Shown here piece by piece: positions 57,201 through 63,200 of a DNA stretch of 64,000 nucleotides. The stretch is taken from NCBI GenBank assembly GCA_964372875.1, contig CAYJTB010000003.1:9902-73901 (forward strand), written 5' to 3'. The position numbers are program-made. This DNA comes from an uncultured bacterium. Lineage in GTDB: Bacteria; Omnitrophota; Omnitrophia; Omnitrophales; JACQLI01. Position 1 is the first letter of the stretch. The number at the start of each line of letters is the position of its first letter.

Positions 57201-60200
57201 TACCACAAAAAGATCATCCGCGATCATGATATGGCGAATTCCGTATTTGCTCTTGAGCTGTCTGATCTCTTCGATGACGTTGGGGATACTGCGCTGGCGT
57301 ACCGTTTTTTCTGTGTAGCAAAACGTGCACCGGAAAGGACAGCCACGTGTGGTGTAGATGCTCCCCAATCTTTTTGCGTGCATAATGGAATGATGCGAGG
57401 GGTAACGCGAATAGACTTCCTTCACATTAAATAGATCCCACGCGGGATAAGGCAGGGAGTCTAAATCCTGGATGATTTTTCCTTCCTTGGTTTGAATGAC
57501 TTCGTTTTCCTGGCGGAAGACAATGCCGTCGACATCGGAGAGGGACTTATTATTTTCAAAGGCATCGATGATTTCAAGGATGGCGACTTCCCCTTCGCCG
57601 ATCACGCCCACATCCGCCTTGGTGGCTGAAATAAAACTTTTGGGCGTTGAGCTGATCACGCCGCCTCCCACAATCACTTTCACCTCCGGCCTCACCTGTT
57701 TTACCAAATTGCAGGTAAATTTCAGGAAATTCCATGCTGTGATCATCCCGCCGGTACAGAAATAGTCGTATTTTCTCTCACGAATCTCTTTGACGAAATC
57801 ATCCATAGGCAAGTTGTAGGCGTCCATATCGATCACTTCGACGTGATGGCCGGCTCGTTGGAGAACCGCGGCGATCCACATGAGCCCTAAGGCAAACGCG
57901 GTTTGGGAAAGCCGGTAAGGCGGCGCTACGATAAGAACTCTTTTATGACTCTCCATTAAATATCCTCCCACGCGATTGGATGATCCGCTTCAATATTTCG
58001 TTTTGCTTCCCGGCCGATCACCACAGGCCAAAATTTAGGAGGCAGGCCTCCGGCCGGACCTTTGATCGCCAGCATATTCTCGCTGATCTTGGTTCCCTTT
58101 TTGATGGACGTCTGGGCGTAAATGGTTTTTTTGAAAGAATTAATGGTGTCGTACTCGCTGGGCTGGATTCGTTTGATTCCGTCTCCTAGTACACTTGACA
58201 TCAAACCCGCAACCCGGACAAGTTCAGCCATCTCAATCGGTTCGGACGAGAAAATATGATCCGGTCCTTCCAGATGCCGGTCCAGACTGAAGTGGCGTTC
58301 AATGGCATGCGCTCCGATCGCCATTGCAGCAACCGCAGCCGAAGTCCCAAGCGTGTGGTCTGAATATCCCACGGGGATTTGAAAAACCTGCCGGAGTGTT
58401 TTAATGACGTTCAAATTTACTTCGCAAGGATCGGCAGGATAAGAAGAAAGACAGTGCATCAGAATGATTTGTCCGTTGCCTTCTTTTAAAATTGCGCTGA
58501 CCGACTCCTCCACCTCGGCCAAGGTGGACATGCCGGTCGATAAGATGATCGGCTTGCCTGTTTTAGCGATGGCCGTTAAAAGCGGGATGTTGTTGAGGTC
58601 TGAGGAAGCTACTTTATAGTAAGGCGTGTTGAGCGATTCCAAAAGATCCACACTTGCCAGATCAAAAGGAGTGGAGAAAACGTCGATGCCTATTTTTTCT
58701 CCGTGTGCAAAGATTTTCTTATGTTGATCGGGAGATAATTCCAAGCGCTGAAGGAGCTCAAAGATGTTTTCCTCCATTCCCAGAATTTGTTCGGCATATC
58801 TTGCCTTCTTAAATTGATTGGAGACCCGGTTACCCGCAGAATAGGTTTGAAACTTTACTGCGTCGCAGCCGGCTTTTTTTGCTTCTTCCACAAGTTTTAA
58901 AGCAAGATCCAGCTGTCCATTGTGATTAAGCCCGGCCTCGGCAATGATAAAAGGTTTGTTTCCCGGGCCTACGGGACGGTTACCCAGCATGACCACGCCG
59001 CTTTTCTTTGTGGCGTTCACTTCTTTACGTACCTTGTAAAAATCCGAATATTTGTCCAATAAGATTTTAGATAAGTCCAAGGCCTTTAAAAAATTGATGT
59101 GAATGTCGCTGTAATTGTATTCTGCCGGACCGCCCACGGCATAAAGCGACTTGTTTCGGGCGAGAATGCTCTGCACTTTACGCAGTTGGTGTTCATAATC
59201 CCTGTTAAGCAAGGGATAAACGCACGGTCTTTTTTGAACAATTCCTTTGTAAAACTCGTCTTTTTTGAGGAGTCCTACTCGGATCAAATCATCCGTCACA
59301 CGTTTGATTAACGCCTCATCAGGCGTTGTGTCTAATTCGTCTTTGGCGGTGTAGGCAATTTCTGCAGTCAAAAAGGTTTTGTCTTTGGGGAAATTTTCGG
59401 AGGAAAACTTTTTTTGTTCGCTGATCCGGTGAAAAATAATCTCGGGGGAATCATAGTAAAGAAAGTGAACTCCCTCGGGAAGAGCGTAAGGCTTGTGCAT
59501 GGCGATGGCCACTGAGAGGACGCCGCGGAAACATAAATTACAATCAATCCGGAAAAGCCTCGCCAAGATATTAATAGGAATGGTGGAGATCACAATCTCG
59601 TCGGGTTTGATATCGATCACTTTTCCGTCGGAAAGTTTAAGTGAAGAAATGGAAGTTTCCGTATGAACGATCTCTTGGGCGCCGTGTTTCAAAAGAATTT
59701 TTCCGCCGTGACTCCGGATCCTCTCTGCAATTCGCTCCATGATGCAGCCTGAGCCCTGTCTTCCTACCGCGTTCCACCTGCCGGTATAAAAAGGAAGACG
59801 CTTTTCTCTTAATTCGATTCGCTTGGGAGCCCAATTGGCGGTCATCTCTTCCGTGGATATTCCCCAGAGTTTTTGAGGGTAAGTTTCAAAGAACATGTTT
59901 TGAAGTGTGGGTCCTACCAAACTCTTCACATATTCTTTGTAGCTTTTCGCCTTTTGACGCTCGGCAGGGTTGACCGTCTCGAGCTCGCCCATAATCCGGT
60001 GCCGGATTTCTTTGGGATAGCGTTCAAAGGATTCGTAAGAGAGCGGATAATCGTAATACTCATCAAAATTTTCTCCTTTGACGTTTTTGCACCAAAACTC
60101 CCCCTTCACAAAAAGATCGCCGAACTCTTTTTCCCAAAAATTTTCAAGGTCCTTATTGACAGTGTGATAAATATGAGGACCGAAATCCAGATAAAACTCA

Positions 60201-63200
60201 TCCCATTTCCGCGTGAAGGCGAGGCCGCCGACATATTCTTCTTTCTCAAGAATCGTAACGTCCCAGCCTTCTTTGGCCAGCATCCAGCCTGTTGCAAGAC
60301 CACTCACCCCCGCGCCAAGGATATAAGCTTTTTTTACCATGCCGTGAGCCCGCCATCCACGACGAGATTATGACCTGCCACATAAGAAGATGCTTTGGAT
60401 GCCAGATACAAAACAGAATGATTAATTTCTTCTTCATTGCCCATCCGGTTCATAGGTGTGCGGCGGGAGTATCTCTGGAGAAAATCTTCACCCTGATCAC
60501 GATAGATGCCGCCCGGGCTGATTGAATTGACGCGAATCTTGTAGGGCGCTAAATGCACGGCTAAATATTTTGTAAGGGAAATAACCGCTGCTTTGGAAGC
60601 TGAATAAACTTCGGAGTTCCGTCGCGCGCAATCCGTGTAAATCCTAGGGTCGCTGCTTACGATCCCATAAACAGAAGCAATATTGATGATCCTGCCACCC
60701 GATTTTTGTTTTTTCATGATCTTGGCAGCTCCTTGGGATGCGAGAAACACGCCTCCTATGTTGACTTGAAGGACTTGCATGAATTCCTTAAAAGTCCGTT
60801 CCTCAAAAGGCGTGAACACGGCTATCGCGGCAGCATTGATCAGGATGTCTAAACGTTTGTGTTCCTTTTCCAGCGTTTGAAAGGCCTTTTTTACCGATTT
60901 TTCATTGGCGACATTCATCCCCACATAACTTGCCTTTAGCCCTAGTTTTTTGAGTTCAGTAACTTGTTTTTGGCAGAGATCTTTTTTGATATCAGAGACG
61001 ATCACTCGGGCACCGGCAAGGCCTAGAGTTTTACAAAATTGAAATCCGAGTTGCCCGCAAGACCCCGTGACTAAAGCCACCTCCCCCGCCAATTCAAAAT
61101 CACTGAAGGGAGTTGAATTATTTTTATGCATATTGAGGGGTAACAAATCTTTTCCGCTCCCGCTCAGGAACAGAATCCCAAGAAAATTCTGTTTTTTGCT
61201 GCAGTCTTTCCGTCCGCACGGACTGGGTAAGTTTTTCGGTTTGCGCGGTCATCTCGGCCCCTGAATAATCCGCAATTTGCTGGATGAATTTTGTTGGGTT
61301 TTTGAGTAAGTCTTCGTAATGGACTTCAAGGTACCTTGGGTTTTGCCCACGGATACCCAAACGCTTTTTCTCGGCACTTCCCATCTCTGTCACGACACGG
61401 GAGGCGTAAAGCGCGCGACCCAATTCATTCATGCCGAGAAAATAGTCGACGTCCTCATCTGCAAGCCACCAGGGAAGAAAAAGCTCCTGTCCTGGCCCTG
61501 TCCGTACCTTCTTCTTAATAGGAAGTCCTTCGAGATTCTGCAATTTCTCAATATTGACCCAGCCCTTTTTTTGAATTGAAAGCGCGACGTCTAAAGGCTT
61601 CCTTATGATTTCTATAAATTTAATAGCAGGAAACGAGTCCCATAGGAGACTGAGGAAAGGGACAAAATTGACGGCCTTTATGCAAAAAGTGGATTGCTGC
61701 TTGTGGGCATATTTTTTAACGTCCGTACGGTCTTTTACTTCCCGCCACCGGTTAAAGATTTCATCCATAGAAAGGCGCTGCCAGATCCGGGTGTCATCCG
61801 TTGGGCGAAAATTAAAATGGCGTCCCAAAATTGACGAAGTGAAGGTTTCGTTGAAATAGCCTCGGAAGATTTCCTGGGCCGCCGGCGTATTGATTTGACC
61901 GCTCGCCGCCATCATGGGAATACAGTGAAAAACCCACGGCTCAAAGTCATATTCCACATTTTTAAAAGATCCCACCAGATTTCCTAAAAGCGTAGTCCCC
62001 GAACGATTAACCCCTGTAATGAATAAAATCTTGCGCGTTAAAGGTTCTCCCTCGCAGTCAAACGAATATTCGTTTTTGGAATTGAGTTGTGTCATGCAAC
62101 AGGCTCGGGTTTGGGCTCCAATTTCACCTCGTCATCGTGGATCCACTTTCGGCCACGGTTGTAGAGTTTCCCGACCTTGTCTTCGAGTTCAGGCGAAACA
62201 ACCCGAAGGATTTCTTTGCCCATGATTCGGTATTGCTTGCCTACCTTGGCGGCTTGAATGAGACCTCCTTTGATCAGGCGGGTAAAGGTGCTTGGGCTTA
62301 CTTTTAAGAGGGCTTGTGCTTCTTTGGGGGTATACACTTCATTTTCGTGGATTTCCATGAATACTCCTAGGGTTGGCTGAGATTTACGCATCCTAACACA
62401 AACTCATATGTTGTCAATGATAGTCACTAGTAGTCACCATTAACTATCGACGTCTCTTTTTAGAACTTAATCCTGCTTGTAACTTACGTGTGTAGTGTGT
62501 TAGCTAGGAAGACTGCTTGGGACTCACAGAGGCCTTAACTGGCGGAGAAGACAAATCCGAGCTCAGATCATAGATAATGAATTCATTGGGTTTCTGAACT
62601 GCGATCGAATAGTGCACGTTCATGTATTGAGCAAATTCCTGAGACTGGTGAAACTCGCGGGGGTCACTTACCGCGAAATGGGTCGCTCCCTCCTTTCTGA
62701 GATATTCTAAATTGGCGATGGGGCTTTTAGAGGCAGCCTTTCTTTTTTCCCATTCGTCATAGGGGAGCATAAATTTCTGATACTCTTGGATTTCATCCTT
62801 TTTATTTATTTCAAGGCCCCATCCAAAGCGCTCCGCATAATAAAGAAGCGTATGGTTCCCTTGAACGATAATCTTACTTTTGTCCTGCGAAGTAATTTTA
62901 TGAATTTCATCACCGATCTCGATAAAATTTCGCTCCCGATCTGAGGTCTTAAATGCCGGATGGAGCGCGTAACGAAAACTTACGATTGTCGTCATGACAA
63001 CAAAGAAAAAGACGAAGACTTTTTGAAAGGTTTTTCTGTCTTCAAAGGCTTTCAGTAATTGTTGAAATCCAATTCCTATTAAGGGACAGGCTGCCAAAAC
63101 GAATTGAAGAAGATAAAACTCATGTTCAATAATTTTGCGGGGCGTCAAAAGAAAACTTGTAACAAAATAGGCAGCACACCAAATCACAAAAATTCCGGCC

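Follow-up and report, generated by a model that had tools for sequence, protein, structure and literature searches.

We analyzed a 64,000-nucleotide stretch of DNA from an uncultured Omnitrophota bacterium (contig CAYJTB010000003.1; hereafter the window), in which the reverse-strand gene at 57956-60340 encodes a flavin domain related to UDP-galactopyranose mutase (UGM) fused to a NeuB-type nonulosonic acid (NulO) synthase. Judged by its conservation across species, the fusion is a genuine, widely conserved two-domain protein under selection. We propose that it is a putative bifunctional surface-glycan enzyme, making a 3-deoxy-2-ulosonic (sialic-acid-like) sugar and bypassing the usual nucleoside diphosphate (NDP)-sugar hydrolase, an assignment that we regard as quite possible and still tentative. 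The flavin and NeuB superfamilies are both well known; the conserved fused architecture and its partner gene (fam1, described below) are absent from the literature that we searched. An earlier reading of the same sequence (the original prediction) had taken the architecture to be uncharacterized, and this agrees with our literature searches, which found no paper describing the fusion; a phylogenetic survey of 13,941 NulO synthases mentions neither flavin adenine dinucleotide (FAD) nor fusions.

Architecture and distribution of the fusion

The fusion gene is a single ATG-started open reading frame (ORF) of 794 aa with zero internal stops in the ORF listing. Both of its ends overlap neighboring genes, the start with the stop of the SDR-family oxidoreductase gene upstream, and the stop with what is likely the ATG (M6 of the listed ORF) of the radical SAM gene downstream. 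From the N-terminus, the protein comprises a UGM-type flavin domain (aa 1-430, 59051-60340; assigned by sequence and profile searches of the PDB, residue mapping, and fold match), an inter-domain linker with little conservation and low predicted local distance difference test (pLDDT) scores (aa 431-460, 58961-59050), a NeuB TIM-barrel domain that condenses phosphoenolpyruvate (PEP) with a sugar (aa 461-723, 58172-58960; assigned by Pfam, NCBIfam, alignment, and Foldseek), and a SAF (antifreeze-like) domain (aa 740-794, 57959-58123; assigned by Pfam), all on the reverse strand. In the AlphaFold model, computed from 28 homologues (mean pLDDT 84.3), the two halves are folded, and residues 431-442 between them form a disordered linker.

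Pfam matched all four of the families by which the original prediction had suggested assigning the domains, as well as a fifth, and these matches are far above chance: NAD_binding_8 (aa 7-70, 1.2e-14, 54.8 bits), Amino_oxidase (aa 12-354, 1.2e-16, 61.6 bits), GLF (aa 150-333, 7.9e-7, 29.4 bits, just above its cut-off of 26.3), NeuB (aa 483-723, 5.6e-89, covering the full model, 1-241 of 241, with 298.2 bits against a cut-off of 22.1), and SAF (aa 740-794, 7.1e-8, 33.3 bits against 21). The motifs from which the fusion had been recognized by eye are all present as quoted: GAGVSGLATG (aa 9-18), E32, GGLA (aa 38-41), and YPQKLWG (aa 154-160). The claim that a UGM-like FAD half and a NeuB/SAF half are joined in one protein is thus borne out by Pfam, by profile searches, and by fold matches.

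We found at least 120 full-length homologue clusters among 5.8 billion proteins; they are 783-815 aa long, share 48-96% identity with the query at 98-100% query coverage, and have an identical domain set. We also scanned one genome per GTDB species and found 62 loci, 55 of which carry the fusion ORF, so that the survey of the fusion across genomes that had been proposed earlier now stands at 55 other genome loci; for the counts given below, these 55 loci and the window were combined (56 loci) and their ORFs were called and clustered. The 55 loci span more than 15 phyla: the hosts include Anaerolineales, Nitrospiraceae, Elusimicrobia, Terriglobia, Magnetococcales, Zetaproteobacteria, Gammaproteobacteria, Planctomycetes, and Omnitrophota, many SAR11 single-cell genomes, SAR116, Prochlorococcus/Synechococcaceae, one Pacebacteria genome of the Candidate Phyla Radiation (CPR), and one Nitrososphaerales archaeon. 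The fusion had been called unusual, a description that does not hold for a large family spread over this many phyla, whose members are generically annotated in public databases (as “N-acetylneuraminate synthase family protein,” “FAD-dependent oxidoreductase,” or “SpsE/protoporphyrinogen oxidase”).

The same distribution settles the integrity of the gene. That two neighboring genes were merged by a sequencing frameshift or a mis-assembly, a concern for which read mapping had been suggested, has a negligible probability, since more than 120 independent clusters and 55 other genome loci share the same continuous architecture and length, and since the fusion also lies on complete chromosomes of Polynucleobacter necessarius (LT606946.1) and of a member of the Pelagibacterales (CP136340.1). 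A frameshift or an assembly chimera is excluded because the same unbroken frame is kept across species, and no read mapping is required for this conclusion.

Two observations on individual loci belong here. Four Prochlorococcus/Synechococcaceae single-cell genomes (L051, L052, L054, and L058) carry divergent homologues with 31-33% identity to the fusion, and fam1 still adjoins them. One fusion locus (L015) lies on a 13-kb metagenome-bin contig labeled as a Leptospira interrogans serovar Manilae metagenome-assembled genome, a label that may be a binning error.

Active-site residues and neighboring genes

Several lines of evidence point to UGM as the closest structurally characterized relative of the N-terminal domain. 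In a single-sequence search of the PDB with the fusion, UGMs rank first (2.5e-12); with a profile of the N-domain family, the Klebsiella pneumoniae UGM (KpUGM) is matched at E=4.7e-41, whereas the best non-UGM flavoenzyme reaches 6e-19 and aligns over the FAD-binding start only. The profile aligns to KpUGM in three stretches (1-207, 375-431, and, weakly, 244-318), and to the Trypanosoma cruzi UGM (4dsg) over positions 5-429. Foldseek searches with the model gave target-normalized TM-scores (TMt) of 0.73-0.75 for 4dsg and 0.66-0.67 for 3ute, both above protoporphyrinogen oxidase (PPOX) and phytoene desaturase, and the N-domain is accordingly modeled with the three-domain UGM fold.

The active site of UGM can be traced residue by residue in the window protein. 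H60/H63 of KpUGM (GPHIFHT) correspond to H56/H59 (in the His loop GPHIYHT, aa 54-60), F151/F152/Y155/W160 to F150/F151/Y154/W159, R174 to R174, Y185 to Y185, R280 (TRITEHK) to R305 (HRISEQK), Y314 to Y375, and Y349/D351 to Y410/D412. In UGM, the two arginines, the mapped tyrosines, and the tryptophan are responsible for UDP-sugar binding. In an alignment of 28 homologues with 49-79% identity to the window protein, all of these mapped residues are invariant, as are the FAD-site residues G9, G11, G14 (of the GxGxxG motif, aa 9-14), and E32; in total, about 100 N-domain positions are invariant, including GxGxxG, the His loop, and both arginines. The original prediction had named the lack of FAD-binding residues on alignment as what would speak against it; they are kept.

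By its sequence scores, the N-domain is a relative of UGM rather than an orthologue: the fusion reaches only 54.3 with the UGM model TIGR00031, for which the cut-off is 303.75, and the GLF match is just above threshold. In NCBIfam, the N-half is closest to the PRK07208 group (NF005545-NF005549; best score 181.3 against a cut-off of 389), with weak N-terminal matches to CrtI, HpnE, and PPOX. The PDB matches to CrtI, PPOX, L-amino-acid oxidase (LAAO), and LSD1 are mostly limited to about residues 1-125, and in these searches homology of the PF01593 type was mostly not seen past the FAD-binding part, in the substrate domain.

We also searched exhaustively with HMMER, using the N-domain alone, and obtained 5133 relatives. 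The best 40 of these (E below 1e-49) are either proteins of about 780-830 aa or shorter pieces, nine of which we inspected: P0121, P0125, P0134, P0138, P0152, and P0160 are fragments running into or including NeuB, P0149 and P0157 are short sequences of the same clade that end early, and P0122 (562 aa) matches the fusion N-domain over about 320 residues before continuing into unrelated sequence, which is probably the result of a frameshift or a chimeric assembly in its source. None of the nine inspected short matches is a complete stand-alone protein, and complete stand-alone relatives (425-480 aa) appear in the scan only below 31% identity. Fusion to the synthase thus seems to be obligate for this N-domain clade.

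The C-terminal half retains the catalytic apparatus of NeuB almost completely. E25, K53, Q55, K129, E134, S154, Y186, H215, E234, H236, and D247 of the Neisseria meningitidis enzyme (NmNeuB; chains of 4ipi/4ipj) map to E468, K496, Q498, K576, D581, S601, Y634, H662, E681, H683, and D694, and these 11 metal-binding or catalytic residues are invariant in the 28 homologues. The replacement of E134 by aspartate is a known variant in the NeuB family (PMC8208679). With Foldseek, the C-half matched both 8h2c and 1xuu with a TMt of 0.82, and in NCBIfam it scored just below the cut-offs of both NeuB/LegI (TIGR03569; 378.9 against 399.65) and PseI (TIGR03586; 311.8 against 340.25).

The SAF domain departs from the classical enzymes at one position. 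NmNeuB R314, described as the sole conserved catalytic residue of the SAF domain (PMC8208679), which contacts the acetyl carbonyl of N-acetylmannosamine (ManNAc; PMC11339185), is replaced in the fusion by Gly761 (codon 58058-58060), within a KGP motif that is invariant among the 28 homologues. The divergent L051 fusion has VAP in place of KGP, so that the arginine is absent there too, and seven stand-alone NeuB-like proteins encoded in fusion loci all retain xRP, with the arginine kept. Because of this replacement, we consider the NeuB half a distinct NeuB subfamily and not an orthologue of NeuB, LegI, or PseI, and the residue pattern suggests that its sugar substrate, or its means of completing the active site, probably differs from that of classical NeuB. 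Invariant positions are dense in both halves and, apart from the missing SAF arginine, both look catalytically competent.

A partner gene accompanies the fusion in most genomes. This gene, fam1, encodes an NADP-type Rossmann protein of about 350 aa. Of the 56 fusion loci, 48 contain it; 46 have it on the strand of the fusion, and 39 have it as the immediate neighbor. The copy in the window lies at 55270-56394 on the reverse strand (374 aa, counted from M64 of the listed ORF), and its start at M64 overlaps the stop of the gene before it. One metagenomic protein (P0148, 1141 aa) carries fam1 in the same chain as the UGM-like domain, NeuB, and SAF, and this Rosetta-stone evidence suggests that the window genes at 57956-60340 and 55270-56394 work together. 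The fam1 proteins have a GxGN Rossmann motif followed by TRR, which suggests that they bind NADP(H), and they have many invariant arginines and lysines. No specific Pfam or NCBIfam family was matched by fam1, and a profile search against the PDB matched the Rossmann part alone; its structural model (pLDDT 89.5) gave weak Foldseek matches in the PDB (TM 0.3-0.43), namely DpsA (dipicolinate synthase subunit A), formate and D-2-hydroxyacid dehydrogenases, and Trp dehydrogenase.

In addition, a CTP_transf_3 cytidylyltransferase gene is found in 41 of the 56 loci, where its product resembles SpsF or PseF, or is joined to another NeuB-like domain of divergent sequence. Other recurrent neighbors are SDR genes (26 of the 56 loci), ABC exporters (20), GSA-like class-III aminotransferases (14), and radical SAM/SPASM proteins (13), and glycosyltransferases are numerous in the fusion loci, which form large and variable glycan islands. 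The fam1 partner, the loss of the NeuB arginine, and the nearby cytidylyltransferase all go beyond the original prediction.

As far as is known, the biosynthesis of sialic-acid-like sugars follows three canonical routes, each having a GT-B-fold hydrolase ahead of the NeuB-type synthase; in classical nonulosonic acid clusters, the synthase is paired with NeuC, LegG, or PseG, which free the sugar from its nucleotide. We found no Epimerase_2 (NeuC/LegG) or PseG-type family among the recurrent neighbor families within about 10 kb of the fusion in either direction. When 131 further neighbor families (255-470 aa) were scanned singly, Epimerase_2 and Glyco_tran_28_C were likewise absent from the top 25 Pfam families and from those with at least two members.

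No common sugar precursor emerged from the neighboring genes. A CDP-3,6-dideoxyhexose, suggested as the conserved precursor by RfbF, RfbG, and RfbH in the window and by recurring BLAST families, was rejected, because an NCBIfam scan of 83 neighbor proteins gave a mixture of LegC/PseC, PseB, LegB, RmlA/B, Fcl, and HddC, with no true RfbH. HddA-like kinases occur in nine loci and split transketolases in two to three, and a heptose precursor would give a 10-carbon acid; these heptose precursor genes are not conserved across the fusion loci.

Candidate reaction and alternative explanations

In UGM, the N5 atom of the reduced flavin attacks C1 of the sugar, UDP is displaced, and the ring of the resulting adduct opens (PMC7662398). 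For the fusion, we propose a pathway that would begin in the same way: the UGM-type domain would bind an NDP-sugar, N5 of the reduced FAD would attack the anomeric carbon, the nucleotide would leave, and the ring would open to give a flavin-iminium adduct. This adduct would then be hydrolyzed, rather than re-closed to a furanose with recapture of the nucleotide, and an acyclic aldose would be freed; an epimerization at C2 via the enamine may precede the hydrolysis, and such a built-in 2-epimerization (the chemistry of NeuC and LegG) is chemically conceivable because the C1 iminium would acidify H2. The NeuB domain, with its metal ligands H662/H683, would condense the aldehyde with PEP to an ulosonic acid. 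The putative role of fam1 would be to re-reduce the flavin or keep the FAD reduced, or else to perform a redox step on the 2-keto-3-deoxy acid, and the nearby cytidylyltransferase would make the CMP-sugar for transfer to the glycan. The steps and their order are our reconstruction; the architecture, the conservation, the synteny, and the active-site residues are what was observed.

The original prediction had suggested that an unusual substrate is channeled between the two halves, for example a furanose or an oxidized hexosamine. Channeling as such is plausible in light of the apparently obligate fusion, the triple fusion with fam1, the conserved catalytic residues in both halves, and the absence of NeuC/PseG-type genes from the neighborhood. 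The two examples fare less well: NeuB acts on an open-chain aldose, which makes a furanose an unlikely substrate for the NeuB domain, and the conservation of UGM-specific, non-redox active-site residues disfavors an oxidized hexosamine.

A number of points weigh against the proposed pathway. We know of no characterized precedent for the hydrolysis of a UGM-type iminium, the Pfam Amino_oxidase model outscores GLF on the N-domain, and the weak fold matches of the fam1 model do not point to a flavin reductase. Gly761 in place of the SAF arginine casts some doubt on normal substrate binding by the NeuB domain. The absence of NeuC and PseG covers only about 10 kb around the fusion, and some of the contigs are short. 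The NDP-sugar genes nearby are heterogeneous, and none of the precursor pathways stands out as the one that would feed the flavin domain. Nine fusion loci also encode a canonical stand-alone NeuB, and the fusion may serve a product other than the classical nonulosonic acids.

The stronger Amino_oxidase match (1.2e-16, against 7.9e-7 for GLF), the weak N-terminal matches to CrtI, HpnE, and PPOX, and the oxidoreductases around the module (SDR and fam1, with GFO_IDH_MocA in other loci) would all fit a true redox flavoenzyme of the amine-oxidase, protoporphyrinogen-oxidase, or desaturase type. Such an enzyme might oxidize an amine or alcohol (e.g., an alditol or amino-alditol) to the aldehyde, or oxidize or desaturate the ulosonate, with fam1 and the SDR protein performing further redox tailoring. 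We consider this unlikely, though worth keeping in mind, since the oxidase and desaturase matches cover only about the first 60-125 residues, whereas the UGM matches span the whole domain, and since the UGM residues for UDP and sugar binding are all invariant in the fusions. Alternatively, the conserved UGM catalytic constellation could belong to an ordinary pyranose-furanose mutase, acting on an NDP-sugar or CMP-ulosonate used elsewhere in the glycan, with the fusion serving co-expression or complex formation; the large and variable glycan islands, with their many glycosyltransferases, would offer such an enzyme a role. We consider this about as unlikely as a redox enzyme, because the N-domain clade is found only fused (or as fusion fragments and truncated or chimeric sequences) although the glycan loci differ greatly, a pattern that would be difficult to account for if the two halves were not linked in mechanism, because fam1 can be part of a triple fusion, and because the canonical NDP-sugar hydrolase that NeuB would then need was not found nearby.

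It is also conceivable that the flavin domain is catalytically silent, being a structural or regulatory appendage that, for example, replaces dimer contacts or the SAF arginine, while the protein is a plain NeuB-type synthase acting on a free sugar. The loss of the SAF arginine gives this idea some basis, as the active site may be assembled differently from that of the classical NeuB dimer; it is nevertheless improbable, because the roughly 100 invariant N-domain positions, with GxGxxG, the His loop, and both arginines among them, form a pattern typical of an active enzyme.

Returning to the proposed bypass of the NDP-sugar hydrolase, the fusion probably marks, as far as its sequence and gene context indicate, a way of making acidic surface sugars that is new to the literature and shared by many environmental microbes, SAR11 and Prochlorococcus among them. 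A more specific and more speculative version, which we think less likely than not to hold as a whole, would join a UGM descendant that unmasks NDP-sugars via a covalent flavin (by hydrolysis and perhaps C2 epimerization), a NeuB lacking the N-acetyl-binding arginine, and an NADP-dependent partner of a new family into a previously unrecognized, flavin-dependent pathway whose non-classical ulosonic acids would be displayed on the cell surface in SAR11, Prochlorococcus, Polynucleobacter, magnetotactic bacteria, CPR bacteria, and some Thaumarchaeota. The products of such a pathway could be non-aminated or longer-chain ulosonic acids.

If the proposal is correct, a UGM-type flavin domain replacing the hydrolase would be a new reaction outcome for covalent flavin (N5) catalysis, and would open a fourth way into the synthesis of ulosonic acids. 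Sialic-acid-like sugars influence how cells are recognized by phages, how they are grazed, and how they evade immunity. The most abundant bacteria of the sea, SAR11 and Prochlorococcus, carry the family in hypervariable glycan islands, and it is also found in Polynucleobacter, a cultured freshwater genus. With these hosts, the family is both ecologically relevant and open to experiment. The module also gives the putatively NADP-binding family fam1 a defined functional context. We regard the result as a solid, testable lead and not as a demonstrated new pathway.

Genomic surroundings and comparison with known systems

In the window, the fusion belongs to a reverse-strand gene series, considered one operon because stop and start codons overlap, with the order sulfotransferase, SDR, fusion, B12-radical SAM, fam1, two methyltransferases, putative transferase, cytidylyltransferase, and aminotransferase. 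The sulfotransferase at its head (61124-62095) was identified by domain scan, and the SDR-family oxidoreductase (60334-61146) lies directly upstream of the fusion and is translationally coupled to it. A B12-binding radical SAM enzyme of a methyltransferase-like type (56394-57971) is inserted between the fusion and fam1, and is not a conserved member of the fusion module. Downstream of fam1 are genes for an FkbM-type methyltransferase (54248-55273) and a SAM-dependent methyltransferase (53196-54248), followed by one for a 634-aa protein (51316-53220), a candidate transferase for the activated ulosonic acid; its weak matches (TIGR04396 surface carbohydrate biosynthesis, BFO_1060 glycosyltransferase, Epimerase_2, and Glyphos_transf) are C-terminal only, and its N-terminal ~300 residues received no assignment in the domain scans. 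The operon ends with a CTP_transf_3 (SpsF/KdsB-like) cytidylyltransferase (50552-51319), the likely CMP-activating step, and a class-III (GSA-aminomutase-like, PRK06209) aminotransferase (49251-50555), which recurs together with the cytidylyltransferase in 14 loci.

The window contains two B12-binding radical SAM enzymes, of PhpK/Sden_1168/HpnJ-like methyltransferase types (56394-57971, above, and 29526-31184, reverse strand), and their relatives recur near the fusion elsewhere (families fam15 and fam28). Their presence in a glycan locus suggests radical C-methylation of sugars. This locus is an unbroken run of glycan-biosynthesis genes of about 50 kb (12027-63991), which includes at least 12 glycosyltransferases, 9 methyltransferases, three PMT_2-type membrane proteins, Wzy, a flippase, a carbamoyltransferase (42621-44420), a CDP-alcohol phosphatidyltransferase, and a priming sugar transferase (14454-15854). 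Since the housekeeping genes GAPDH, Fmt, Def, PriA, and UDG lie at 5184-12024, the glycan locus is considered chromosomal. A complete CDP-glucose set is encoded at 25383-29513 (reverse strand) and 33544-34815 (forward strand): glucose-1-phosphate cytidylyltransferase (450 bits), CDP-glucose 4,6-dehydratase (453 bits), and RfbH (740 bits), beside an epimerase/reductase and a sugar C-methyltransferase (Methyltransf_14). From this gene content, the same glycan is predicted to contain a branched 3,6-dideoxyhexose.

At 20057-21217 (reverse strand), 37 kb from the fusion, the window encodes a WecB-type non-hydrolyzing UDP-GlcNAc 2-epimerase. This gene, the only Epimerase_2 gene of the window, was considered as a NeuC and rejected, since it scores 469 bits with the WecB model and 110 with the NeuC model, against a cut-off of 236 for the latter. 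With WecB encoded, UDP-ManNAc would be available in this organism as one conceivable substrate of the flavin domain. Farther away, a 1208-aa ORF at 1179-4805 (reverse strand) has an N-terminal HTH_3 domain only, its ~1150 other residues being without a Pfam match.

In the complete 1.9-Mb chromosome sequence of Polynucleobacter necessarius (L064; LT606946.1, record 188501-209622), the genes encode an ABC exporter, an SDR protein, the fusion (791 aa, at about 196126-198501), fam1 (373 aa, at about 198501-199622), CTP_transf_3, GFO_IDH_MocA, and a carbamoyltransferase, and the module sits within a Wzy/Wzz surface-polysaccharide locus; this species would be a convenient host for experiments. A second fusion, of about 585 aa, joins a divergent NeuB-like domain to a CTP_transf_3 cytidylyltransferase (e.g., L025:3725-5473); it is not in the window, and is found in L001, L008, L011, L012, L014, L015, L022, L025, L028, L029, L040, L052, L059, and L060. 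In most of these loci, it directly follows fam1, and it is often followed in turn by an asparagine-synthase-like amidotransferase or a radical SAM/SPASM protein.

Among characterized proteins, the synthases NeuB, LegI (SpsE), and PseI (for example N. meningitidis NeuB 1xuu, Bacillus subtilis SpsE 1vli, and Campylobacter jejuni PseI 8h2c) align with the C-half of the fusion end to end, with 32-37% identity and a TM-score of about 0.82 (target-normalized), and the fusion keeps all of their metal, PEP, and catalytic residues and the SAF domain; it differs from them in its additional 430-aa N-terminal flavin domain, in scoring below the equivalog cut-offs, and in having glycine for the SAF arginine. 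Mammalian NANS, compared by description, also has an antifreeze-like domain without the bacterial arginine (PMC11339185), although it has no flavin domain and uses ManNAc-6-phosphate.

The N-domain shares with UGM (1wam/3gf4, 4dsg, and the Aspergillus fumigatus enzyme 3ute) the predicted fold, the FAD motif, the His loop, the arginine pair, the tyrosines, and the tryptophan, and by analogy it would be expected to need reduced flavin while making no net redox change. It differs from UGM in its low identity (~17-25%), in its score far below the TIGR00031 cut-off, and in its fusion to a synthase whose substrate must be a free aldose; for this last reason, the flavin adduct probably ends in release and not in ring contraction. 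Its nearest unfused relatives are stand-alone FAD proteins of the PRK07208 group (425-480 aa, 27-31% identity), annotated as “hypothetical protein,” which share Y154, K157, R305, Y375, and Y410, but lack the synthase, and the window protein scores below their cut-offs. The role that we propose for the N-domain, from NDP-sugar to free aldose, would be that of the hydrolyzing 2-epimerases NeuC and LegG and of the UDP-sugar hydrolase PseG, which are unrelated GT-B-fold enzymes without flavin and were not found near the fusion, where the UGM-type domain may take their place.

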